The notes: generated by a model not told the origin, from the sequence alone. DNA of 64,000 nt from Flavobacteriales bacterium (GCA_023957375.1 JAMLHB010000001.1:898245-962244); one strand, 5' to 3'; shown: positions 30,100-41,329, numbered from the stretch's first letter. Program-made: numbers and translations.

Positions 30100-30391
30100 G
30101 GTCAATGGCAAAGGAAGGCAACCCCAGGCTGGCAGGCAACACCTACCGCTTTCCGGCTTAGTTGCACGGATGTAATCACCTCCAATGAAACAGGTGGGGG
30201 TAGCACGGCTCCTGCCACCAGCCGATGGAAAGGCATTTACCAACCGGATGGGAACGGCCTTGCTTGACAAAGCACTTTCAAAGATCATAATATTGCATTC
30301 ATCGAATCCCGGGAAACATTCGTCGATAGGATTTGACCATTCGTTGAAAACCAAAGCCTCCCCAAGGAACTCGTTCAAAAACAACCGGAAG

Positions 30392-33300
30392 ATGAAGACA
30401 ACAATACCCCCCATTGTGCATCCAGGCTGCTCTGCCAAGGCTGTGCTTTGGTCGTTAGCCTTGCTGTTGGGCACGCCACAACTGGCACGATCACAGAGCT
30501 ATTGTACCGCTGGTGCCAATACGCCTGGCGCCGCAGGCATCACCGAGGTGGTGTTCAATGAGATCAGCAACGCATCGGTGGCTACCCCGGCCTATTCGAA
30601 TTTCACCGCACAAATCACCAACGTGGTGGTGGGCAATTCCTACCAGCTATCGGTGAAGGTGGTGGCCACCGGCACCTTATTTGGGAGCCCGACCAATACG
30701 GCCATGGCCTGGATCGACTGGAACCAGAACGGTACGTTCGAGGCCTCGGAAAGCTATGCCTTGGGCACCCTGAACGCCGGTCTTTTCGGCAGTGAAGCAG
30801 AGGGTTATACCAGTGCTTCGCCATTGAACATCACCGTACCCGGCACCGCATTGGGCGGCAACACCCGCATGCGGGTCCGGACACGGCGCGGCAGCGCGCC
30901 CTCCGCTTGCGGCAACATCAACCACAGCGAAGCGGAAGACTATACTGTGAACGTGATCGTGCCCGTCTATTGCAGCGGTACACCGGCACCGGGCCTGACC
31001 ACTACCTCCACGGCCATTCCCTGCCCGGGCATTCCGTTCACCTTGGGCATGCAGAACAATTCCGCGGACCTGGGCCTCACTTACCAATGGCAAAGCAGCA
31101 CTACCGGCTTGGCCGGCTCCTATGCAAACAACGGCTTGGGCACAGCTCCTACGCAAGTTACCAGTGCAACCGTGCCCACTTGGTACCGCGTGGTGGTCAC
31201 GTGTTCCGGGCAGGACGGGATCAGTACGCCGGTAACCGTCTCACCAAGCCCGTTTGCCGCCGCCTGTTATTGTGCCGTCACTGCCAACAGCAATGATGCC
31301 ACCGGGATCACCAGGGTACAATTGGGCACCATCGACAACAGCACGAGCTCGGCCCCGGCCTATAGCGATTTCAGCAACTTGACCACCGTGATGAACGCCG
31401 GTGACAGCTATCCCTTGACCGTAACGGCAAATGCCCCAGGGTTCACCCTGGCGTACATCACCGCCTGGATCGATTGGGACCACAGCGGGGTGTTCGATGC
31501 CTCAGAATCTTACGACTTGGGGCTCGTGTTGTTGGGTGAAGCCATTACCAGCAGCTCGCCGTTGGGCATTACCGTGCCACAGAACGCGGCTGGCGGCCCC
31601 ACCATCATGCGGATCAGAGCGACCAATTCGACGGCCCCCAGTGCGTGCGGCAATAACGACAACAGCGAGGCGGAAGACTATATGCTCAACGTGATCCCGC
31701 CACACAACACGTGCAGTACCGCATTCCCGGTGCAATGCGGCCAGAGCTATCCGGGCAAAACCACGGGCGTAGCGCCCAGCATGCCCGGCAGCACATGCCC
31801 CTTCAACGGGCCGGCCAGCAGCGGCGGGCAGAACTGGTGGCTGTATACCGCCACCGGCGATAATGCGGTCACCTTCAGCACCTGCGGCAATGCCGACTTC
31901 GACACCCGCATCTCGGTGTTCAGTGGTGCAGATTGCGCCAGCCTGGCCTGCACGGCCATGAACGACGACAGCCCAGGCTGCGCCACCGGCAGTAGCGAGG
32001 TGACCATCAACACCACCACGGGAACCACCTACTGGATCGCGGTGCACGGTGCCGGTGCGCAAGAGGGATCGTACACATTGTCCGTATCCTGCGGTGCCGT
32101 TTGCCCACCCCAAGCCAATGACGTTTGTGCCAGTGCCACCTCCATAGCCAATCACCTGCGCGACGGCAGCAACACCCCGGCCACCTACACCAACGCCTGC
32201 GCCACCGTGGACGGCCCCACATCGGCCAGCGGAGCCATGCCCGTGAGCGGCGTGTGGTTCAACTTAAGCACCGGCGACTTCAGCCATGCCTTGCTCTCCG
32301 TTGTCGACCATGGATCCGATGCCCAATACAGCGCCACCACCTTGAATTTCGCCTTGTTCAGTGGTGCCTGCAATAACTTGGGGGCCGAAGATGAGGTGGC
32401 CGTCACCACTGATGCGGATGGGTTCAACATAGTCGACCTTGCGCCCAATTCCAACTACCTGCTGCTGGTGTACAACAACGGCAGCTCCGGCGTGGCGGGC
32501 ACCTTCGGCCTGATGCTGGAGCACGCCGCACACAACGACGCCTCCATCGCCGCCCTGCTCTCCCCCGCCCCGGGCTTGCTCTGCGGCTCCACCATGGCCC
32601 CGGAGGTCACCCTGCTGAACAACGGTGACAACGACCTCACCAGCGTGCAGATCAACTACGGACTGAGCGGCGGACCGGTGCACACCTACAACTGGACGGG
32701 CAACCTGGCCTACGGCCAATCGGTGAACGTCACCCTGCCCACCGTGCCCACCGTCTCCGGAACCGGCCAAACCCTGGCCGTGTCCACCAGCATGCCCAAC
32801 GGAGTGGCCGACGACATGCCCGCCAACGACAGCCAAAGCATCCTCGTCGACGTGAGCGGAGAACCCGTAGTGCTCAAGATCAAAACGGACAATGACGCCA
32901 GCTTCTTCTACTGGGAGATCTACGACCAGGCTTTCAGCATAGTGGCCACCGGAGGGTACTACCCCTTGGCCAACAACCTGTACAGCGAGAACCTCTGCCT
33001 GTCCACCGACAACGGCAACTGCTACAGCCTGGCCCTGTACGACGACAATGGCGACGGCCTGTGCTGCAACAACGGCAACGGATTCTGGGAGCTGCGCACC
33101 ACCTCCGGGCGATTGCTGCTGCGCGACCTCTTCGACGGCAGCATCGACGGCTACTCCTCACCCTCCGGGTCCACGCAGACGCCCAGCTACGGCAGCGGCC
33201 ACAACTTCTGCCTGCCCGCAGGGCCCTCGCGCATCATGGCCAACGAGTGCGGCGTGTTTACCAACGGCATGTACGACAAGGTCTACAGCAACAAGGTGAC

Positions 33301-34147
33301 CGGTGCCACCCAGTACCAGTTCGAGTTCAGCAACCCCGACGCCGGCTACATGCGCCGCATCGCACGCCCGCACAACTACGTGGTGTTCTACGAGATGGTC
33401 TCCAGCCCATTAGTGCCCGGCGTAGTGTACTTCACCCGCGTGCGCACCAATGAGGCAGGCCCCTTGGCCAGCGCACACTGGGGATCGGGCTGCGACCTCG
33501 GCTTGGGCATCGCCCAGGTGGTGCAGTGCACCCAGCTGATCCAGGCACCCGCCTATGGCCACTCCTGCAACGAGACCCGCAGCTTCAACGCACCCTACAA
33601 CTACCTCTATGCCAGACCCGTGACCGGCGCCACCACCTACACCTTCAAGGTCACCGGTGACGACGGCAACTACAACAGCGGCATCGAGTTCGTGCGCAGC
33701 ACGTACATCCTGGCACTGGGCTGGGGTACTGACGAGGCACCGGCGCTCCAGGACCAGAGCACCTACCAGGTGCAGGTGCGGGTGACGGTGAACGGCATTG
33801 AGGGCACCTACTGCGGCAACGTGTGCAATGTCACCATCGACAACAGCCCGAATTTGGGGATACGCTTGACGCAGACCGAAGGGCAGCCTGAGTTCAACCT
33901 CTGGCCGAACCCCAACAACGGGCAGCACCTGAACGTGGCCCTGAGCGGCTTGGACAGCGGGCTCACCACCGCCGATGTGCTCCTGGTGGACCTCACCGGC
34001 CGCATGGTCATTGGCACCCAACTACCTGTTGCAGGCGGTGCGGTCAACAGCTTGATCGAGCTGGGCAATGCCGCCAACGGCACCTACCTGCTGCAGATCA
34101 TCGTCGGTGGCAAGACATGGACCAAGCACGTGGTGGTCAGCAAATAG
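30392..34147 (+). CDS. large T9SS-secreted protein: two GEVED-like domains, central region, conserved approx 330-aa pre-tail module, T9SS type A sorting domain
   Basis: Signal peptide MKTTIPPIVHPGCSAKAVLWSLALLLG. GEVED-like signature twice (AWIDWNQNG...CGN...SEAEDYTVNV). C-terminal NLWPNPNNGQHLNV...TYLLQII...K Por-tail. Confidence 0.8.
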   Translation: MKTTIPPIVHPGCSAKAVLWSLALLLGTPQLARSQSYCTAGANTPGAAGITEVVFNEISNASVATPAYSNFTAQITNVVVGNSYQLSVKVVATGTLFGSPTNTAMAWIDWNQNGTFEASESYALGTLNAGLFGSEAEGYTSASPLNITVPGTALGGNTRMRVRTRRGSAPSACGNINHSEAEDYTVNVIVPVYCSGTPAPGLTTTSTAIPCPGIPFTLGMQNNSADLGLTYQWQSSTTGLAGSYANNGLGTAPTQVTSATVPTWYRVVVTCSGQDGISTPVTVSPSPFAAACYCAVTANSNDATGITRVQLGTIDNSTSSAPAYSDFSNLTTVMNAGDSYPLTVTANAPGFTLAYITAWIDWDHSGVFDASESYDLGLVLLGEAITSSSPLGITVPQNAAGGPTIMRIRATNSTAPSACGNNDNSEAEDYMLNVIPPHNTCSTAFPVQCGQSYPGKTTGVAPSMPGSTCPFNGPASSGGQNWWLYTATGDNAVTFSTCGNADFDTRISVFSGADCASLACTAMNDDSPGCATGSSEVTINTTTGTTYWIAVHGAGAQEGSYTLSVSCGAVCPPQANDVCASATSIANHLRDGSNTPATYTNACATVDGPTSASGAMPVSGVWFNLSTGDFSHALLSVVDHGSDAQYSATTLNFALFSGACNNLGAEDEVAVTTDADGFNIVDLAPNSNYLLLVYNNGSSGVAGTFGLMLEHAAHNDASIAALLSPAPGLLCGSTMAPEVTLLNNGDNDLTSVQINYGLSGGPVHTYNWTGNLAYGQSVNVTLPTVPTVSGTGQTLAVSTSMPNGVADDMPANDSQSILVDVSGEPVVLKIKTDNDASFFYWEIYDQAFSIVATGGYYPLANNLYSENLCLSTDNGNCYSLALYDDNGDGLCCNNGNGFWELRTTSGRLLLRDLFDGSIDGYSSPSGSTQTPSYGSGHNFCLPAGPSRIMANECGVFTNGMYDKVYSNKVTGATQYQFEFSNPDAGYMRRIARPHNYVVFYEMVSSPLVPGVVYFTRVRTNEAGPLASAHWGSGCDLGLGIAQVVQCTQLIQAPAYGHSCNETRSFNAPYNYLYARPVTGATTYTFKVTGDDGNYNSGIEFVRSTYILALGWGTDEAPALQDQSTYQVQVRVTVNGIEGTYCGNVCNVTIDNSPNLGIRLTQTEGQPEFNLWPNPNNGQHLNVALSGLDSGLTTADVLLVDLTGRMVIGTQLPVAGGAVNSLIELGNAANGTYLLQIIVGGKTWTKHVVVSK

Positions 34148-34460
34148 TTGCCCTACTCCACTAAGCCACAGGGCCGCCCGGCGGGCGGCCCTGTGTGCTG
34201 GGGCGATGTACCGAGTTGTCAATGGGGATGGCGGGGAGATTCTATCACGGCCGAAGGCCCCATTCAAGAAATAGGGTCGTTCGGCCATTGGGCCCGGAAG
34301 AGCGGAATTGCAAGACTCCCAAGCTCAATCCACTACCGAACCTAATTGCCAACTCACCCCGTCCCATGGCCGCAATAGGGAAAAAAACAGGAACAATTGC
34401 CTTTTCATTTCAGCTTACCTACTTTGCGCCGATGAAATCCAACATCTAAAACCCACCCAG

Positions 34461-37400
34461 ATGAGACCACGCAAGACCCTTCCCCCATGGACCAAGCCAA
34501 TTTTTGCGGCTGTCTTCCTCCTTTTCGGTTTCATGGCACAGGCGCAGCAATGCCCCAACATGGCGGCCAACGTAGGAGACCCCTGCGATGACAACAGGCC
34601 ATACACCACCAACGACGTGGTGATCATGAATAGCGGCGGTTGCATGTGCCTTGGGGCCGATATGATACCCACCTCCGTGGATATCCGTCTGGTGCCCAGT
34701 GCCCAACCGAACAAGCTGGACTTGCAGATCATGCTGCATTCGACGGAAGTATTCGGGGGGGTATTGAGCGCCTTGACGGTTACCATCCGGTATGATGCCT
34801 CAGCCGGTGCGGCCTTGGGCGGCGGCGTTGAATTCTGCCCGGCCTGGCCCCTTGACCCGGAAGCCGTGGTCACCAACAGTGGCATGGCCTACCGCACGTA
34901 CAACGGGTTCGGGTTGACGCGACTGGACACAGATCCGGGCCCATTTGATGATGAAGGATGCGGGGCCACACTCCCTGTGGAAACATGGTTCACCGTATCG
35001 ACAATTCCCTACTCGGCGCCGAACTGCGTGACATTCACGTTGGGCAATGATGCCTTCACAGGAGCCAATAACAGAGATTTCTATCTATCAATGAACGGCT
35101 GGGATCGCACAGGCAATGTTATCGGCGGCCCTGTGCAAGTAGGCCCCTGTAGCGTGGATTGTGCCGGTGTGCCGGGCGGTACAGCCTATCTGGACAACTG
35201 CAACCAGTGCGTTGGTGGTACCACGGGGAATGTGCCTTGCACCCAGGACTGCAACGGCGACTGGGGTGGAACGGCTTCCCTTGACAATTGCGGCACCTGC
35301 GCAGGCGGAAATACCGGCGTAACGCCTTGCACCCAGGACTGCAACGGCGACTGGGGCGGAACGGCTTCCGTTGATAATTGCGGTACCTGCGCAGGCGGAA
35401 ACACCGGCGTAACACCTTGCACCCAGGACTGCAACGGCGACTGGGGCGGAACCGCTTCCGTTGATAATTGCGGTACCTGCGCAGGCGGAAACACCGGCGT
35501 GGTACCCTGTGCACAGGACTGCAACGGCGACTGGGGCGGAACGGCTTCCGTTGACAATTGCGGCACCTGCGCGGGCGGAAACACCGGCGTAACGCCTTGC
35601 ACCCAGGACTGCAACGGCGACTGGGGCGGAACGGCTTCCGTTGATAATTGCGGTACCTGCGCAGGCGGAAACACCGGCGTAACGCCTTGCACCCAGGACT
35701 GCAACGGCGACTGGGGCGGAACGGCTTCCGTTGACAATTGCGGCACCTGCGCAGGCGGAAACACCGGCGTAACACCTTGCACCCAGGACTGCAACGGCGA
35801 CTGGGGCGGAACGGCTTCCGTTGACAATTGCGGCACCTGCGCAGGCGGAAACACCGGCGTAACGCCTTGCACCCAGGACTGCAACGGTGATTGGGGCGGA
35901 ACCGCCTACATGGACAACTGCGCAACCTGCGTGGGTGGCAACACCGGGCTGGAACCCTGCGTGAGCGACTGCAACGGAGTGCCCGGCGGATCCGCTTTCG
36001 TGGACAACTGCGGCACCTGCGTGGGCGGCGACACCGGACTGGAAGCCTGCGTGCAGGACTGCAACGGCGACTGGGGCGGAACGGCTTCCCTTGACAACTG
36101 CGGCACCTGCACCGGTGGCAACACCGGCGTAACACCTTGCACCCAGGACTGCAACGGTGATTGGGGCGGAACCGCTTACATGGACAACTGCGCAACCTGC
36201 GTGGGTGGCAACACCGGGCTGGAACCCTGCGTGAGCGACTGCAACGGAGTGCCCGGCGGATCCGCTTTCGTGGACAACTGCGGCACCTGCGTGGGCGGCG
36301 ACACCGGACTGGAAGCCTGCGTGCAGGACTGCAACGGCGACTGGGGCGGAACGGCTTCCCTTGACAACTGCGGCACCTGCACCGGTGGCAACACCGGCGT
36401 AACACCTTGCACCCAGGACTGCAACGGTGATTGGGGCGGAACCGCTTACATGGACAACTGCGCAACCTGCGTGGGTGGCAACACCGGGCTGGAACCCTGC
36501 GTGAGCGACTGCAACGGAGTGCCCGGCGGATCCGCTTTCGTGGACAACTGCGGCACCTGCGTGGGCGGCGACACCGGACTGGAAGCCTGCGTGCAGGACT
36601 GCAACGGCGACTGGGGCGGAACGGCTTCCCTTGACAACTGCGGCACCTGCACCGGTGGCAACACCGGCGTAACACCTTGCACCCAGGACTGCAACGGTGA
36701 TTGGGGCGGAACCGCTTACATGGACAACTGCGCAACCTGCGTGGGTGGCAACACCGGGCTGGAACCCTGCGTGAGCGACTGCAACGGAGTGCCCGGCGGA
36801 TCCGCTTTCGTGGACAACTGCGGCACCTGCGTGGGCGGCGACACCGGACTGGAAGCCTGCGTGCAGGACTGCAACGGCGACTGGGGCGGAACGGCTTCCC
36901 TTGACAACTGCGGCACCTGCACCGGTGGCAACACCGGCGTAACACCTTGCACCCAGGACTGCAACGGTGATTGGGGCGGAACCGCTTACATGGACAACTG
37001 CGCAACCTGCGTGGGTGGCAACACCGGGCTGGAACCCTGCGTGAGCGACTGCAACGGAGTGCCCGGCGGATCCGCTTTCGTGGACAACTGCGGCACCTGC
37101 GTGGGCGGCGACACCGGACTGGAAGCCTGCGTGCAGGACTGCAACGGCGACTGGGGCGGAACGGCTTCCCTTGACAACTGCGGCACCTGCACCGGTGGCA
37201 ACACCGGCGTAACACCTTGCACCCAGGACTGCAACGGTGATTGGGGCGGAACCGCTTACATGGACAACTGCGCAACCTGCGTGGGTGGCAACACCGGGCT
37301 GGAACCCTGCGTGAGCGACTGCAACGGAGTGCCCGGCGGATCCGCTTTCGTGGACAACTGCGGCACCTGCGTGGGCGGCGACACCGGACTGGAAGCCTGC

Positions 37401-38861
37401 GTGCAGGACTGCAACGGCGACTGGGGCGGAACGGCTTCCCTTGACAACTGCGGCACCTGCACCGGTGGCAACACCGGCGTAACACCTTGCACCCAGGACT
37501 GCAACGGTGATTGGGGCGGAACCGCCTACATGGACAACTGCGCAACCTGCGTGGGTGGCAACACCGGGCTGGAACCCTGCTCGGGGCCTTGCACCGGCAA
37601 CGAAGTAGTGGTCGTGATCCATGCTGATGGCCAAGCCGACCAGCTGAGCTGGGTGATCACCAACGACGGCGGTACCACCATCGCATCGGGCGCTCTTTCT
37701 GCAGGTCAAAACAACAGTACGGTCAGCACCACGGCCTGCTTGGGAACCACGAATGACCCGGCCTGTTACGGCTTCCGCCTGATGGACAGCTTTGGCGACG
37801 GCATCTCCAACGGTGGGTGGGAACTGAAAACCACCAGTGGCAGGCTCTTGTTGCAGGATGCCTTCGCCTCCGGTGCAGTTTCCCCCGCATCGCCATCCGC
37901 AACCGCCGCGTATGGCAGCAGCCACAGCTTCTGCCTGCCTGAAGGACCGGCCAGGATCAAGCCCACCTCGTGCGGCATCTTCACCTATGGCTATTATGGA
38001 CAGGTGTTTGCCACCAAGGTGGTCGGCGCCACCCAGTACCAGTTCGAGTTCAGCGATCCCGATGCGGGTTATGTGCGCCGGATCGCACGTCCGCACGAAT
38101 GGGTGGGCTTCCATGAAATGACGACCAAGCCGTTGGTACCTGGTGTAGTGTACTTTGCCCGCGTGCGCACCGACCGCGATGGCCCCTTGGCCAGCGCACA
38201 CTTCGGCGCGGGCTGCGAACTGGGCATGGGCATTGCGCAGACCGTGCTTTGCACCCAGCTGATCGAGGCACCCAGTTACGGCCACTCCTGCAACGAGACA
38301 CGCATCTTCAACCACCCGTACAGCTTTATCTATGCAAAGCCGGTGGGTGCAGCGACCTCGTACACGTTCTGGATCACCGGTGATGGAGGGCTTTACGACC
38401 ATGAGTTCACCCGCAGCACCTACATCCTCCACCTCGGTTGGAGTGCAGCGGAGGCTCCCCCCTTGGTAAACGGAAGCACGTACCAAGTGCGTGTGAAAGT
38501 GGCCGCCAGCGGCGTTGAAGGGACTTATTGTGGCAACACCTGCGACATCACCATCAACAACAGCCCGGTGTTTGGCGAAATGGCGGTGCCGACCATGGGG
38601 AATGCCACCTTGTGGCCCAACCCTGCGCGTGACGGACAGGTGAACCTGAGCATTGACGGCATTCAGGACCTTGACCAACAAATCACCGTGGACGTGCAGG
38701 ATATCTACGGCAAACAGGTGTTTGCCCAGGAATTCGGCAACAGCGGTGATCGCTTCAGCACCATCCTGCAACTTCCCAAGGACATCGCCACCGGCGTGTA
38801 CATGGTGAACATCACCGTGAACGGTGAGCACAGCGTGCAGCGGCTTAGCATCATCAAGTAA
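34461..38861 (+). CDS. large T9SS-secreted protein with about 27 tandem 30-aa Cys-rich modules, conserved pre-tail module, T9SS type A sorting domain
   Basis: Signal peptide (IFAAVFLLFGFMAQAQ). Repeats are C.QDCNGDWGGTA..DNCG.C.GGNTG..P. C-terminal TLWPNPARDGQVNLSI...GVYMVNITVNG Por-tail. Confidence 0.8.
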   Translation: MRPRKTLPPWTKPIFAAVFLLFGFMAQAQQCPNMAANVGDPCDDNRPYTTNDVVIMNSGGCMCLGADMIPTSVDIRLVPSAQPNKLDLQIMLHSTEVFGGVLSALTVTIRYDASAGAALGGGVEFCPAWPLDPEAVVTNSGMAYRTYNGFGLTRLDTDPGPFDDEGCGATLPVETWFTVSTIPYSAPNCVTFTLGNDAFTGANNRDFYLSMNGWDRTGNVIGGPVQVGPCSVDCAGVPGGTAYLDNCNQCVGGTTGNVPCTQDCNGDWGGTASLDNCGTCAGGNTGVTPCTQDCNGDWGGTASVDNCGTCAGGNTGVTPCTQDCNGDWGGTASVDNCGTCAGGNTGVVPCAQDCNGDWGGTASVDNCGTCAGGNTGVTPCTQDCNGDWGGTASVDNCGTCAGGNTGVTPCTQDCNGDWGGTASVDNCGTCAGGNTGVTPCTQDCNGDWGGTASVDNCGTCAGGNTGVTPCTQDCNGDWGGTAYMDNCATCVGGNTGLEPCVSDCNGVPGGSAFVDNCGTCVGGDTGLEACVQDCNGDWGGTASLDNCGTCTGGNTGVTPCTQDCNGDWGGTAYMDNCATCVGGNTGLEPCVSDCNGVPGGSAFVDNCGTCVGGDTGLEACVQDCNGDWGGTASLDNCGTCTGGNTGVTPCTQDCNGDWGGTAYMDNCATCVGGNTGLEPCVSDCNGVPGGSAFVDNCGTCVGGDTGLEACVQDCNGDWGGTASLDNCGTCTGGNTGVTPCTQDCNGDWGGTAYMDNCATCVGGNTGLEPCVSDCNGVPGGSAFVDNCGTCVGGDTGLEACVQDCNGDWGGTASLDNCGTCTGGNTGVTPCTQDCNGDWGGTAYMDNCATCVGGNTGLEPCVSDCNGVPGGSAFVDNCGTCVGGDTGLEACVQDCNGDWGGTASLDNCGTCTGGNTGVTPCTQDCNGDWGGTAYMDNCATCVGGNTGLEPCVSDCNGVPGGSAFVDNCGTCVGGDTGLEACVQDCNGDWGGTASLDNCGTCTGGNTGVTPCTQDCNGDWGGTAYMDNCATCVGGNTGLEPCSGPCTGNEVVVVIHADGQADQLSWVITNDGGTTIASGALSAGQNNSTVSTTACLGTTNDPACYGFRLMDSFGDGISNGGWELKTTSGRLLLQDAFASGAVSPASPSATAAYGSSHSFCLPEGPARIKPTSCGIFTYGYYGQVFATKVVGATQYQFEFSDPDAGYVRRIARPHEWVGFHEMTTKPLVPGVVYFARVRTDRDGPLASAHFGAGCELGMGIAQTVLCTQLIEAPSYGHSCNETRIFNHPYSFIYAKPVGAATSYTFWITGDGGLYDHEFTRSTYILHLGWSAAEAPPLVNGSTYQVRVKVAASGVEGTYCGNTCDITINNSPVFGEMAVPTMGNATLWPNPARDGQVNLSIDGIQDLDQQITVDVQDIYGKQVFAQEFGNSGDRFSTILQLPKDIATGVYMVNITVNGEHSVQRLSIIK
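35149..37590 (+). repeat. tandem repeat array, 90-bp unit x approx 27; includes six near-identical 270-bp higher-order copies (approx 35868..37487)
   Basis: Identical sequence blocks recur at 270-bp spacing (e.g. GCAACGGTGATTGGGGCGGAACCGC at 35881, 36151, 36421, 36691, 36961, 37231, 37501). Six identical ORFs appear on each strand in the ORF track. Confidence 0.95.
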
Positions 38862-38881
38862 CCAACGACCCATACTAAACG

Positions 38882-38918
38882 AAGGGGCCGCCTCAAAAGG
38901 GCGGCCCCTTTGTGTTGT
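38882..38918 (+). terminator. rho-independent terminator after repeat protein gene
   Basis: AAGGGGCCGCC-TCAAAA-GGGCGGCCCCTT hairpin followed by a TGTGTTGT U-rich tract. Confidence 0.55.
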
Positions 38919-39709
38919 ATCCAACCGCTCTGCGAGGCGATGTTGCTGTGTGCCGGGGAATCCGGTGCACCAGTACTGGATCCATGTACTGCATGGGTTC
39001 GGTCCAAGGTTAGGCGCTGCTGCAAACCCTTTACAGGCACTGGCCGTGTGTTATGCGATGGTTGTGAAGGCTGCTTCGGATCTACCCTATGCGTCCCCAC
39101 GCAGAGGTACCAGGTCCGCCTTATACCATCTTGAATTGCAAATCAGGCCAAAAGATGCGCGGCAAATTCTTCGCAGGACGATCCGGGGGACCTGTGGCGT
39201 AGCCATAGCTACGGCGCTGGGCACCCGGAGAAGTAATGCGGAAAAGGAGCAAGCAGATTGGACTAATTTGTGGTTCAAGCTGGTATTACAACCATCATCA
39301 TGCATAGGCCAGTTCAACAGCGCTGGAGAGCTACCGGCCGATGCACACCCATCGACCGAGATGAACGAGGAAAGCCCCTGCAGACGCGGCCGTCACCACG
39401 GCACGGGCACTGCAAGCCCTTCCCGGATGAGCGCAGCCCCGTGGCCACCAGAGGCACCGTGCACTACATGCAGGTCCGTTCGCCGAGCGCCCGCCCAGAC
39501 CTGATGCGCAATGGGCCACATCCCTCTGCCGTGAACAACCATCTCCATCCGTGCTTCCCCAACCCGGCGACATCATCGGCGGTCACTTCACCCACCCGAA
39601 GAACAAGCTGAGCGATCAAAACGGCCCCAACGACACATACCGCAAAAGCTTCATGGTTGAACTTGCCGCTTATCCGGGAACCAGCCCGTCCTAATACCGA
39701 CACCAAGGA

Positions 39710-41329
39710 CTATCGCATCAACTGCACCGTACGTGTCCACAACGGTACGCCTTCATGGCTGCCCCGCAGCATATAGCTGGCATCTGCCAAACCCGCAAGG
39801 TGAACGGAAACCTCAACTGCCCCGATCGGCCATTTCACCGTGCGAACGACCTGCCCCTGCATGTCGAACAGCTCAACGACCTGTTCCACCCGGCTAGGCA
39901 CTTCGGTACGGACCTGCACTGATGAACTGGCGGGTTGGGGAAAAACGGATGGTCCAAACCCTTCCGGGCCGGATAGCCCAGTAACGACCACTTGAAGAGG
40001 CTCTGAATAGAGCGTGCAAGGGTCACCAAATGACGCAAGCACTTGGTACATTCCGTCGATCACGGGCTCAAAGCTCATTCCCGTTGCTCCGGTTATGGCC
40101 ACACCACCCAGGTACCATTGCCAAGAATCCGCAGCGGTGCTTGTCAGTGTTGCTCCGTCAAAGTCGATCTCTGGATCGGGCATGGGGCAGGCATCCACGA
40201 CCTTCTTGACCAGGTTGTGCTCAACATCGGTCACGTACAACTCACCCGCTGCATCCTGCCCAAATCCTGAAAATCCATATACATCGGTTTGCAAGAGCGT
40301 GTCCACATCGAAGTTTTCGCCGAAGGATAAAAAGTCGCCGTTGCAATAATCGGTGAAGATGTATTTGCCAAACAGGTGCGGGAAGCGCGTTCCCCGGTAC
40401 ACATACCCTCCGATGACCGAGCACCATCCCTGCTGGCCGTGATCAAATGCCGCCACGGGTTCCACAAAAGGGCCCAACGCGGCGCAACCGCTCTGGTTGA
40501 CACCTGGCGTGGGGATATAGGCTTCCCGGCAGCGCCAACCGAAATTGGGGCCGTTGTTGTTCCCGGCTGGCCAAAAATCAACCTCCTCCCACTGGTTTTG
40601 GCCCACGTCACCGATCCAAAGGTCACCGGCAAGGGCGTCGAAGCTGAACCGCCACGGGTTTCTCAAGCCGCTGGCCCACACCTCGGGCAGCGCCCCAGCG
40701 GTAGCTACAAAGGGATTGTCCGGTGGAATGGCATAGGTGTCGGTGTGCTGGGAAACATCGATCCTGATCATCTTGCCCAAGGCCGCGCCCAAGTTTTGCG
40801 CGTTGCCTTGCGGATCGTTCTGATCGCCACCATCCCCAAAACCGCAATAGAGGTAACCGTCGGGGCCGAATTGCAGGCATCCCCCATTGTGGTTGGTGAA
40901 TGGTTGTGGCACAGTGTATAGGACCACTTCGCTGGATGCATCAGCCACGTTGGGGTCGGCACTGACTTGAAAGCGCGAGATGCGACTGACACCAGGTCCG
41001 CTGCCGTGGGTGTAGTAGACGTAGAAGTAGCCGTTGTCCGCATAACCAGGGTCGAACGCAAGGCCGAGCAGGCCCTGTTCATTGGAGGCGCTCTGCACCA
41101 GCGGGGTGATGTTCAAGAACGGTACCGGCAGCACTTGCATGCTATCCGCAACGATCCGGATGGTTCCTTGCCGCAACACAACGAACAGCCGTTCATCGCC
41201 GGCATGGGTGGCAAATACCGGCTTGCTCAGCCCCGTCGCCCACGTGTGCAGAGCGATGCGGACGGGATTCTGTTGCGCCGGAACCAACAACGGCAATGAA
41301 AGCAGGAGTATGAGGATCGCCTTTTTCAT
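39710..41329 (-). CDS. PQQ-dependent sugar (aldose/sorbosone) dehydrogenase with T9SS type A C-terminal sorting domain
   Basis: Signal peptide. Beta-propeller motifs (HNGGCLQFGPDGYLY, RNPWRFSFD) typical of YliI/sGDH. C-terminal Por-tail (VFPQPASSSVQV...ASYMLRG). Confidence 0.85.
   Translation of the reverse strand: MKKAILILLLSLPLLVPAQQNPVRIALHTWATGLSKPVFATHAGDERLFVVLRQGTIRIVADSMQVLPVPFLNITPLVQSASNEQGLLGLAFDPGYADNGYFYVYYTHGSGPGVSRISRFQVSADPNVADASSEVVLYTVPQPFTNHNGGCLQFGPDGYLYCGFGDGGDQNDPQGNAQNLGAALGKMIRIDVSQHTDTYAIPPDNPFVATAGALPEVWASGLRNPWRFSFDALAGDLWIGDVGQNQWEEVDFWPAGNNNGPNFGWRCREAYIPTPGVNQSGCAALGPFVEPVAAFDHGQQGWCSVIGGYVYRGTRFPHLFGKYIFTDYCNGDFLSFGENFDVDTLLQTDVYGFSGFGQDAAGELYVTDVEHNLVKKVVDACPMPDPEIDFDGATLTSTAADSWQWYLGGVAITGATGMSFEPVIDGMYQVLASFGDPCTLYSEPLQVVVTGLSGPEGFGPSVFPQPASSSVQVRTEVPSRVEQVVELFDMQGQVVRTVKWPIGAVEVSVHLAGLADASYMLRGSHEGVPLWTRTVQLMR

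Follow-up and report, generated by a model that had tools for sequence, protein, structure and literature searches.

A tandem array of nearly perfect DNA repeats inside an intact gene raises the questions of how such an array arises, how far its copy number can be trusted, and what the encoded repeats do for the protein. These questions are addressed here for a gene located in a window of 64,000 nt, i.e., the whole stretch of DNA that was analysed. The source of the gene is an activated-sludge Flavobacteriales bacterium.

Gene architecture and anatomy of the repeat

The array protein is encoded by an uninterrupted frame of 1,466 codons plus stop at 34461-38861. A longer open reading frame with a TTG start (34308-38861) encloses the ATG at 34461; the corresponding start, MRPRK, was also chosen by independent gene calls in same-species assemblies (P0001 and P0122, the latter from the NCBI MAG GCA_035445645.1). 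The features of the gene and the evidence used to define them are as follows.

34461-38861, + strand: coding sequence of the array protein (ORF list, translation, same-species gene calls)
34461-34544, + strand: predicted Sec signal peptide, MRPRKTLPPWTKPIFAAVFLLFGFMAQA, cleavage after AQA (translation by eye)
34545-34673, + strand: short Cys-containing segment preceding the head, low-confidence model (AlphaFold2)
34674-35141, + strand: predicted cohesin-like β-sandwich domain, the N-terminal "head" (AlphaFold2, Foldseek)
35148-35237, + strand: module 1, diverged "VPGG" subtype, CSVDCAGVPGGTAYLDNCNQCVGGTTGNVP (mismatch matrix)
35238-35867, + strand: modules 2 to 8, a run of seven monomeric 90-nt units of type A (mismatch matrix)
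35868-37487, + strand: six complete 270-nt higher-order repeat (HOR) copies, each with modules B, C, and A′ (mismatch matrix, Tandem Repeats Finder)
35906, + strand: sole variable HOR site, position 39 of unit B, here C (mismatch matrix, codon comparison)
37488-37577, + strand: module 27, terminal B unit forming a partial seventh copy (mismatch matrix)
37578-38609, + strand: first part of a conserved C-terminal cassette (phmmer)
38610-38852, + strand: type A C-terminal sorting domain (CTD) of type IX secretion systems (T9SS) (PF18962, TIGR04183)

Inspection of the translation alone suggests that MRPRKTLPPWTKPIFAAVFLLFGFMAQA, which is followed by QQ, combines a basic N-region, a hydrophobic core, and an A-x-A site. 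At the opposite end, PF18962 (Por_Secre_tail) matched with 27.7 bits for the whole protein and 30.5 bits for the C-terminal part (cut-off 27), and TIGR04183 of NCBIfam with 25.2 bits (cut-off 23), the sorting-domain match spanning approximately residues 1385 to 1465 of 1,466. A predicted N-terminal signal peptide and a C-terminal CTD with two profiles above cut-off support the assignment of the array protein as a T9SS type A cargo, as proposed in the first-pass annotation. The adjoining genes (30185-34147 and 39710-41329) likewise bear CTDs, which fits a presumably T9SS-bearing organism. The entire C-terminal cassette comprises 427 residues (37578-38858), and a phmmer search with it gave 47 matches among the retrieved proteins, 8 of them orthologues of the array gene itself; the other matches mostly aligned end to end. 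The cassette is common to many other T9SS proteins of the clade (about 45 retrieved proteins), with paralogues of 55-66% identity in other Flavobacteriales or Bacteroidetes MAGs.

The array itself consists of exactly 27 in-frame modules with a strict spacing of 30 residues (90 nt), starting at 35148 + 90 × i and ending at 37577, and each of them carries Cys at module positions 1, 5, 18, and 21. The first-pass estimate of about 27 modules with four invariant Cys residues was accordingly right, and its boundaries, 35149 and 37590, were correct to within a few bases. Tandem Repeats Finder reported a single array (35234-37580), the sole tandem repeat in the window, with a period of either 90 nt (25.9 copies, 80% matches) or 270 nt (8.7 copies, 96% matches, score 3825). 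In the mismatch matrix, unit 1 differs from every other unit at 32-41 of 90 nt. Units 2 to 8 show 1-12 nt differences in pairwise comparisons (87-99% DNA identity), encode almost identical protein sequences, and share variants in a mosaic fashion, with 74 synonymous versus 18 non-synonymous codon differences among them; divergence, previously ascribed to the first eight or so copies, thus holds for unit 1, not for the fairly homogeneous units 2 to 8. Modules 1 to 6 of P0126 and 1 to 7 of P0122, both N-terminal fragments, carry the same diagnostic variants at the same positions.

Units 9 to 27 follow the scheme (B, C, A′) × 6 and a final B, the 270-nt copies starting at 35868, 36138, 36408, 36678, 36948, and 37218 and the partial seventh at 37488. 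The monomers B, C, and A′ differ from one another by 21-26 of 90 nt; copies 2 to 6 of the trimer are mutually identical, and copy 1 is off by one base. Module 27 shows 0 mismatches to unit 9 and 1 nt difference from the inner B units, with repeat identity persisting until about 37580. Overall, the array contains 6.33 copies of the 270-nt (90-residue) block, among which a single site varies: the B units at either end have C (35906 and 37526), the five between them T, and since GCC and GCT both specify Ala, the change is synonymous. The postulated near-identical three-module repeat of 270 bp is therefore real, according to both the Tandem Repeats Finder period and the mismatch matrix.

Origin and copy number of the higher-order repeat

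The flanks of the array differ by 0.44-0.56% between the window and the same-species contig L001. At this rate, the 1,620 nt of the HOR should have gained approximately 4 private substitutions, whereas none was seen (Poisson P about 0.018). Together with the mismatch matrix, this supports a recent origin or homogenisation of the HOR, in line with the very recent expansion or concerted evolution suggested beforehand; long-read polishing may have smoothed out minor differences among the copies, in which case the apparent recency is exaggerated. The last 19 modules are thus probably of very recent origin or very recently homogenised. They are likely to have emerged when 270-nt B-C-A′ blocks underwent either unequal homologous recombination in frame or replication slippage, with an inner T-allele block being copied and the two B units at the edges keeping the ancestral C. 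Further exchanges would render the array, and with it the putative stalk discussed below, longer or shorter without inactivating the gene, because each unit is a multiple of three. Array-length variation between strains is predicted on this basis. Phase variation of the on/off type is not predicted: the 90-nt and 270-nt units lie in frame within the open reading frame and are multiples of three, so that the length changes and the frame stays.

The HOR copy number of six rests on a single assembly. Every other retrieved same-species assembly has a break, an N-gap, or a shortened sequence at the array, which bears out the earlier warning of an assembly-failure site. P0121 to P0127 and P0130 are gene fragments starting or ending within the array, contig NODE_526 begins within it, and scaffold L013 has two 100-N gaps at this location (2161-2260 and 2335-2433). 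Only 7 to 8 modules are present in P0001, P0128, and P0129, from genomes of 99.4-99.6% identity. These versions stem from ENA metagenome assemblies. In the one whose DNA was inspected, a contig with a k141-type name, both of the remaining B units carry the C allele, as a collapsed repeat would. The short versions are probably collapsed assemblies and, since repeat collapse accounts for them just as well, are not usable as evidence of variation; the copy-number polymorphism put forward in the first-pass annotation consequently finds no backing in them. Neither the protein collection nor the metagenome scan yielded an independent sequence in which the repeat exceeds 1.33 copies.

These observations bear on two other accounts of the array. 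According to one, the repeat itself is real, but assembly or polishing generated the count of six copies and perhaps also their perfect identity. The failure of all other retrieved same-species assemblies at exactly this position and the lack of independent sequences exceeding 1.33 copies in the collections searched favour this account, yet the usual error of assemblers with perfect tandem repeats is collapse, not expansion, and a perfect array of 1.7 kb is impossible to obtain from short reads, which implies, without showing it, that spanning reads were used. Moreover, the frame is open across all 2,430 nt, and the pattern of C at the edges and T inside makes biological sense, so that we regard an artefactual count as unlikely. 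According to the other account, the copies are old, and ongoing gene conversion, under selection for uniform modules, has maintained their identity, with no recent burst of duplication. Relatives L017 and L018 are also partly homogenised (89% between 90-nt units), L017 has a 270-nt period at 93%, weak period-3 or period-5 patterns are discernible in the proteins P0006, P0008, P0024, and P0026, and the mosaic variants and 87-99% identity of units 2 to 8 look like ongoing conversion. However, zero differences over five copies (1,350 nt) and a variant confined to the inner units find a simpler explanation in the duplication of a single block not long ago, and this leads us to consider persistent conversion alone decidedly improbable; the same machinery would serve conversion and recent duplication, and the two are not mutually exclusive. 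The array resembles satellite HORs such as primate alpha-satellite, in that diverged monomers are grouped into a multimer whose copies are nearly perfect and inner copies are more homogenised than edge copies. In contrast to satellites, the array described here is protein coding, in frame, and under purifying selection, and only the recombination process is comparable.

The 30-residue module and the cohesin-like head

The module is characterised by the pattern C-x3-C-x12-C-x2-C with a GGxAxxD core. Over 1,065 distinct modules from many taxa, C1, D4, C5, D16, C18, and C21 are essentially invariant (99-100% for D4 and D16), and G11 and A13 are conserved to 94-99%. Because of this residue invariance and the synonymous excess among units 2 to 8, the module is shown to be a genuine protein unit under selection. 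Representative protein clusters that contain it number 2,155 at E ≤ 1e-3 and 957 at E ≤ 1e-10, with 1 to 25 copies among the retrieved relatives, and L017 encodes the same module with quite different codon usage. PF18962 is present in 20 of the 30 homologues first listed. Where domains were located in relatives, the arrays have functional domains on one side and the CTD on the other; P0007 and P0049 each have the array C-terminal of a peptidase, which in P0007 is reprolysin-like, with the array between it and the CTD. Precomputed Pfam lists of other module-bearing proteins include M43, GH5, GH10, and pectate-lyase families.

In agreement with the earlier remark that the module could not be assigned to a family with confidence, neither the whole protein nor one 90-residue block gave a Pfam or NCBIfam match to the module (best, zf-RING_10 with E = 0.58), TSP_3, Cu-binding_MopE, Dockerin_1, EGF-like, and zinc-finger profiles included, and a PDB sequence search gave no match either (best E = 1.2). 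MopE and TSP_3 matches in relatives fall outside the module arrays. Thrombospondin type 3 repeats (PF02412), the MopE-type "putative metal-binding motif" (PF11617), and dockerins are likewise tandem, about 30 residues long, and rich in Asp, Gly, and Cys, they are present in similar kinds of protein, and PF11617 and PF02412 are found elsewhere in some module-bearing proteins; however, their profiles miss the module, and its Cys spacing and core are distinct. AlphaFold2 predicts with very high confidence that the module folds: a four-module model reached a pLDDT of 96.1 and a pTM of 0.64 and features short β bridges only, the DSSP pattern suggesting two short hairpins with at least the C18/C21 pair close to a turn.

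For the head region, the AlphaFold2 model has a mean pLDDT of 76.5, with β strands at model residues 44 to 199. About 45 of the 50 PDB matches listed by Foldseek were cohesin or cohesin-like modules (E 3.6e-5 to 3e-3, probability 0.97-1.0, target-normalised TM 0.4-0.56), pointing to a cohesin-type β-sandwich fold, a likeness that is structural only and based on a model of moderate confidence. Cohesin structures are thus almost the only ones that the model matches, which recalls cohesin modules of cellulosomal scaffoldins, but residues 1 to 229 gave no Pfam match at E ≤ 10, Cohesin (PF00963) included. Some module-bearing relatives possess Dockerin_1 or Cohesin Pfam domains, which also recalls cellulosomal scaffoldins.

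A putative length-adjustable stalk

We consider it probable, though far from certain, that the array forms a cysteine-stapled, length-adjustable stalk of a T9SS-exported surface protein, lengthened by recent in-frame unequal recombination. Two disulfides per module would be formed in the periplasm, and the modules would stack head to tail, resulting in a stiff, extended spacer. C-terminal anchoring after processing is established for T9SS cargo of Porphyromonas gingivalis; for the array protein, PorU-type processing followed by such anchoring, rather than release into the medium, may be envisaged, and array length would then set the distance between the outer membrane and the projecting cohesin-like head.

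Alternatively, the modules might be metal- or ligand-binding units and the array a multivalent surface that binds more the more copies it has; a four-Cys Zn site of the knuckle type (CX3C...CX2C), Ca2+ binding via D4/D16, or a carbohydrate- or protein-binding repeat are options. Cys spacing and Gly-rich turns do resemble paired metal knuckles, the DSSP pattern suggests the two hairpins with at least C18/C21 near a turn, the conservation of D4, D16, G11, and A13 exceeds what a mere spacer needs, and carbohydrate-binding and glycoside-hydrolase domains often adjoin the modules. On the other hand, Cys-rich repeats outside the cytoplasm are mostly disulfide bonded, the zinc-finger, TSP_3, dockerin, and MopE profiles of Pfam miss the module (zf-RING_10, at E = 0.58, being the best), and the module accompanies unrelated functional domains in anywhere from 1 to 25 copies, as a generic linker would, which makes a primary role in binding rather unlikely in our view.

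The proposed stalk resembles the Periscope Proteins, in which highly identical repeat arrays give rise to stalks of variable length and counting requires long reads (PMC8201768, PMC9704523). Compared with SasG, Rib, Sgo_0707/SHIRT, and CdrA (Whelan et al. 2021, PMC8201768), the array protein shares the order of a putative N-terminal functional domain (here the cohesin-like head), a tandem array predicted to fold, and a putative C-terminal anchor (here the CTD), near-identical DNA repeats that are all in frame, so that recombination would alter stalk length, and an array beyond short-read resolution. It differs by a T9SS CTD of Bacteroidota in place of an LPXTG or two-partner system, and by a 30-residue four-Cys module in a three-module block of 90 residues instead of a globular Pfam-family domain of > 50 residues. 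The 90-residue block qualifies as a high-identity repeat of > 50 residues, whereas the elementary module alone falls below this screen limit (PMC9704523). The defining trait of Periscope Proteins is strain-to-strain variation of repeat number, which for the array described here is a prediction. Bacteroidetes and T9SS are mentioned neither in PMC8201768 nor in the 2022 review (PMC9704523). With type A cargo such as the gingipains of P. gingivalis, whose CTD is described in PMC4804311, the array protein shares a predicted signal peptide and a Por_Secre_tail above curated cut-offs, but it has no recognised catalytic domain. We know of no studied T9SS cargo protein with a long Cys-module stalk or a cohesin-like head.

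The gene is split, N-gapped, or 19 to 20 modules shorter in the other retrieved same-species assemblies, a warning for metagenomics, and many homologues of the N- and C-terminal parts of the gene product are labelled "partial" or located at contig ends; surface-protein inventories based on short-read MAGs therefore under-count and mis-size such proteins. The module represents a recurring, uncurated domain family that merits a family entry and a structure, and the stalk reading would carry the idea of variable-length stalks beyond Gram-positive pathogens to environmental Bacteroidota and their T9SS cargo. More speculatively, and with the odds against it, the module may be an undescribed fold serving as a standard rigid stalk element of secreted and surface-located proteins throughout the FCB group and in certain Desulfobacteraceae, and the gene the first T9SS-anchored "periscope", in which perfect 90-residue blocks are gained and lost and thereby adjust how far a cohesin-like docking head reaches. 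If so, short-read metagenomes would systematically truncate a whole class of proteins, and the surface of uncultured Flavobacteriales would display a cellulosome-like, length-adjustable protein scaffolding.

Array anatomy and coding capacity

Tandem Repeats Finder detected a single tandem array in the entire 64-kb window (35234-37580), with a period of either 90 nt (25.9 copies, 80% matches) or 270 nt (96% matches, score 3825). In the reading frame of the enclosing ORF, the array comprises 27 modules with a strict 30-residue spacing (35148-37577), each carrying Cys at positions 1, 5, 18, and 21. Comparison of the units in a 27 x 27 matrix of nucleotide mismatches revealed the following organization, in which A, B, C, and A' designate module types.

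Parts of the array (plus strand)
Unit 1: diverged, with 32 to 41 mismatches per 90 nt to all other units
Units 2 to 8: monomeric run of A units, mutual differences of only 1 to 12 nt
Units 9 to 27: (B, C, A') x 6 plus a terminal B
35868-37487: the six 270-nt blocks
37488-37577: the terminal B unit

While B, C, and A' are 21 to 26 nt apart inside one block, the six blocks and the terminal B vary at one position only, a synonymous site with GCT in the five inner B units and GCC in the two outermost ones (35906 and 37526). The module array reported in the first-pass annotation is thereby confirmed and its description correct in substance, including the near-identical 270-nt higher-order repeat (HOR); its statement that the first eight or so copies have diverged holds for unit 1, but not for units 2 to 8.

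The array is enclosed by a long plus-strand ORF (34308-38861), for which the ATG at 34461, also used by independent gene calls in other assemblies, is the likely start. The resulting protein of 1,466 residues begins with MRPRKTLPPWTKPIFAAVFLLFGFMAQA|QQ, by inspection of the translation a typical signal peptide, and its frame is uninterrupted over 4.4 kb. Judged by its substitution and conservation patterns, the array gene is coding and its module under selection. Specifically, the codon differences among units 2 to 8 are 74 synonymous versus 18 nonsynonymous, a relative at locus L017 uses quite different codons for this module, and conservation across 1,065 distinct modules from homologues is 100% for C1, C5, C18, C21, and D4, 99% for D16 and G11, and 94% for A13. 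Two long ORFs overlap the array on the opposite strand.

Antisense ORFs
35088-38924, minus strand: 1,278 residues
35119-37545, minus strand: 808 residues

A noncoding or antisense feature was ruled out by the plus-strand excess of synonymous over nonsynonymous differences and the protein conservation across taxa; the simplest reading of the antisense ORFs is that they are not genes but arise from the high GC content of the in-frame repeat (65% in the array versus 61% in the window).

Domain architecture and the module family

The proposed type IX secretion system (T9SS) cargo was borne out by matches of the C-terminal sorting domain (CTD, type A) to PF18962 (27.7 to 30.5 bits, cut-off 27) and TIGR04183 (25.2 bits, cut-off 23), and no further domain was recognized in the Pfam and NCBIfam scans of the protein. 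The 427-residue C-terminal part (37578-38858), here called the cassette, had 47 phmmer matches among the retrieved proteins, i.e., 8 orthologues of the array protein and about 39 others, most matching end to end, whose N-terminal parts are unrelated. Several such paralogues are found in other Flavobacteriales or Bacteroidetes MAGs, and MAG SZAS-77 contains five copies or more. Among the cassette loci (L002, L004, L005, L006, L008, and L009), many start directly at the end of a contig, suggesting that upstream repeats break these assemblies, too.

Homologues of the N-terminal region of about 200 residues were found only in proteins of Flavobacteriales or Bacteroidetes MAGs, mostly "partial" proteins on very short contigs. 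AlphaFold2 predicted a β-sandwich for this domain (34674-35141; pLDDT of 76.5), and cohesins account for about 45 of the 50 PDB matches listed (best E = 3.6e-5); no Pfam profile, including Cohesin, matched its sequence. On the basis of this model, the domain is probably cohesin-like. The preceding segment (34551-34670, residues 31 to 70, CPNMAANVGDPCDDNRPYTTNDVVIMNSGGCMC) resembles the CDDGNPNTTND...C.C motif of the paralogues P0239 to P0245, where it follows the cohesin-like domain; in P0238, about four tandem copies of this alternative Cys repeat, each of about 40 residues, replace the 30-residue module. Together with its two neighbors, the array gene forms a small cluster of genes for secreted proteins.

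Flanking T9SS cargo genes
30185-34147, plus strand: GEVED domains (E = 3e-33) and CTD
39710-41329, minus strand: GSDH-family protein with a weak CTD match

An apparent length variation of the upstream gene between assemblies (1,320 versus 1,199 residues) reflects the start-codon call only, the DNA being collinear.

As anticipated in the first-pass annotation, the module belongs to no nameable family: sequence searches gave no match in Pfam, NCBIfam, or PDB, and literature searches by exact motif and for T9SS combined with cysteine-rich repeats yielded no description of it in the library covered. When one 90-residue block served as the HMMER query against 1.84 billion representative proteins, 2,155 matched at E<=1e-3, 957 of them at E<=1e-10, with source names comprising Flavobacteriales, Cryomorphaceae, Cytophagaceae, "FCB group," Marinimicrobia, and Desulfobacteraceae. 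PF18962 is present in 20 of the first 30 matches listed. The accompanying domains in the precomputed Pfam lists are very diverse, including PF05572, PF00150, PF00331, PF00544, and PF03422, which correspond to M43 pappalysin, GH5, GH10, pectate lyase, and CBM6, respectively; our own scans confirmed reprolysin-like M12B, subtilase, GBD_T9SS_assoc, and dockerin domains in module-bearing proteins, and in the scanned proteins MopE, TSP_3, and dockerin matches fall outside the module arrays. In the proteins examined, the array lies between the functional domains and the CTD: it is C-terminal of the peptidase domain in P0007 and P0049, and in P0007 it is situated between peptidase and CTD. Array sizes in the retrieved proteins range from 1 to 25 modules, so that the 27 modules found here are the largest number observed.

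An AlphaFold2 model of four modules, computed from 56 diverse four-module segments, reached a pLDDT of 96.1 and a pTM of 0.64 and features only short β-bridges. Covariation of Cys losses was uninformative for disulfide pairing, as a canonical Cys is missing from only 11 of about 1,200 in-register modules, 6 of which merely have C1 displaced by one residue. Two arrays of relatives were compared at the nucleotide level.

Arrays of relatives in other organisms (coordinates within the locus)
L017, 5580-6434: P0046, on a 4.5-Mb contig, with GH10 among its several domains
L018, 4782-6153: P0007, a reprolysin-like peptidase

Both arrays are less uniform than the one in the window, with 89% identity between 90-nt units; L017 also displays a 270-nt period at 93%, hinting at three-module blocks as a recurrent feature of the family. 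Protein-level patterns of period 3 or 5 are weakly discernible in several relatives. Given these patterns and the partial uniformity in L017 and L018, block-wise homogenization seems to be a habit of the module family, with the array gene as an extreme case.

Copy number and age of the repeat

The closest protein cluster has 11 members (93% identity over the aligned part), namely, three "complete" proteins with only 7 or 8 modules (896, 928, and 898 residues) and eight fragments starting or stopping within the array. In the 199-kb contig L001 (ENA ERZ27277025, k141_52393), the two flanks match the window at 99.55% and 99.36% identity, and over about 22 kb the difference of 19 modules is the sole large structural one. 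In the NCBI MAG GCA_035445645.1, two 100-N gaps interrupt the scaffolded array gene, one where the A run ends and the other at the HOR start, and an activated-sludge contig, NODE_526, starts inside the HOR. The array is thus a site of assembly trouble, as foreseen, with all other retrieved assemblies of the species broken, N-gapped, or shortened there. In the gapped locus (L013, from contig DAOMRC010000030.1), gaps 2161-2260 and 2335-2433 bracket a 74-nt island over the A8/B junction; the island ends one base before the sole variable HOR site, at which the sequence after the second gap begins. The N-terminal fragments P0126 (modules 1 to 6) and P0122 (modules 1 to 7, terminating early in module 8) carry the diagnostic variant modules of the window at the corresponding positions, so this part of the array is independently supported.

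Elsewhere, the HOR is present in at most 1.33 copies, and the count of six is that of the window assembly alone. Both B units retained in L001 carry the C allele, which fits a collapse because the edge copies are linked to the unique flanks; this is expected from a collapsed traversal and equally from a genuinely short ancestral allele. The third A module of the eight-module L001 protein P0001 (10958-11047) reads DCNGDGGGPA in place of DCNGDWGGTA and may stem from an assembly path across the A run that is chimeric or erroneous. The exact array protein was absent from a collection of 15 billion proteins, a metagenome scan for a second long array with a 30-nt pattern of the B/C junction returned only the already known NODE_526, and a scan of genome contigs matching the cassette yielded only paralogues of 55 to 66% identity, the source species not being among them. 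Copy-number polymorphism therefore remains a prediction from the sequence, the versions with 7 or 8 modules fitting collapse and a true short allele equally.

At the rate of the flanks, which differ by about 0.5% from the L001 genome, the 1,620 nt of the HOR should have gained about four private substitutions if the repeat copies evolved independently since the two strains split, whereas none was observed (Poisson P ~0.018). The variable site is common to five copies and thus spread by duplication or conversion. These data support the suggested recent origin or homogenization and point to an expansion or homogenization at strain divergence or later, with the reservation that polishing can homogenize repeats. 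An artefact of assembly or polishing, affecting either the number of six or the perfect identity, is unlikely: every other retrieved assembly fails at the array, but the usual error is collapse rather than expansion, and the reading frame is intact. Somewhat more doubtful is an old array held identical by conversion, which is compatible with recent duplication and hence no exclusive alternative.

Proposed function and significance

The architecture, the T9SS signal, the selection on the module, and the confident fold prediction are established, and a mechanism may be proposed in which each module would form two disulfides in the periplasm and the modules would stack head to tail into a stiff spacer. 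After removal of the CTD, the protein would be anchored C-terminally, as described for T9SS cargo of P. gingivalis (PMC4804311). The cohesin-like head would then be projected, with the stalk length determining its reach, and this length might change when 270-nt blocks slip or undergo RecA-type unequal exchange. Since both unit lengths, 90 and 270 nt, are divisible by three, any such change remains in frame, and on/off phase variation was rejected for this reason. That the modules are metal- or ligand-binding units instead of a passive spacer appears improbable; binding would be compatible with the C-x3-C...C-x2-C spacing and with the invariance of the Asp residues, but no profile match speaks for it, and the variety of domains found alongside the module favors a linker.

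The spacer model follows the same logic as the Periscope Proteins, whose authors state that reliable counts of such repeats need long reads (PMC8201768). The interpretation in the first-pass annotation is partly supported, and the array gene is best filed as a T9SS-anchored, periscope-like stalk of uncatalogued four-cysteine modules terminating in a very young three-module HOR. The recombination biology of the locus is already familiar; deserving of follow-up are the module family, whose fold is unexplored, the cohesin-like head, and the systematic failure of assemblies at the array.
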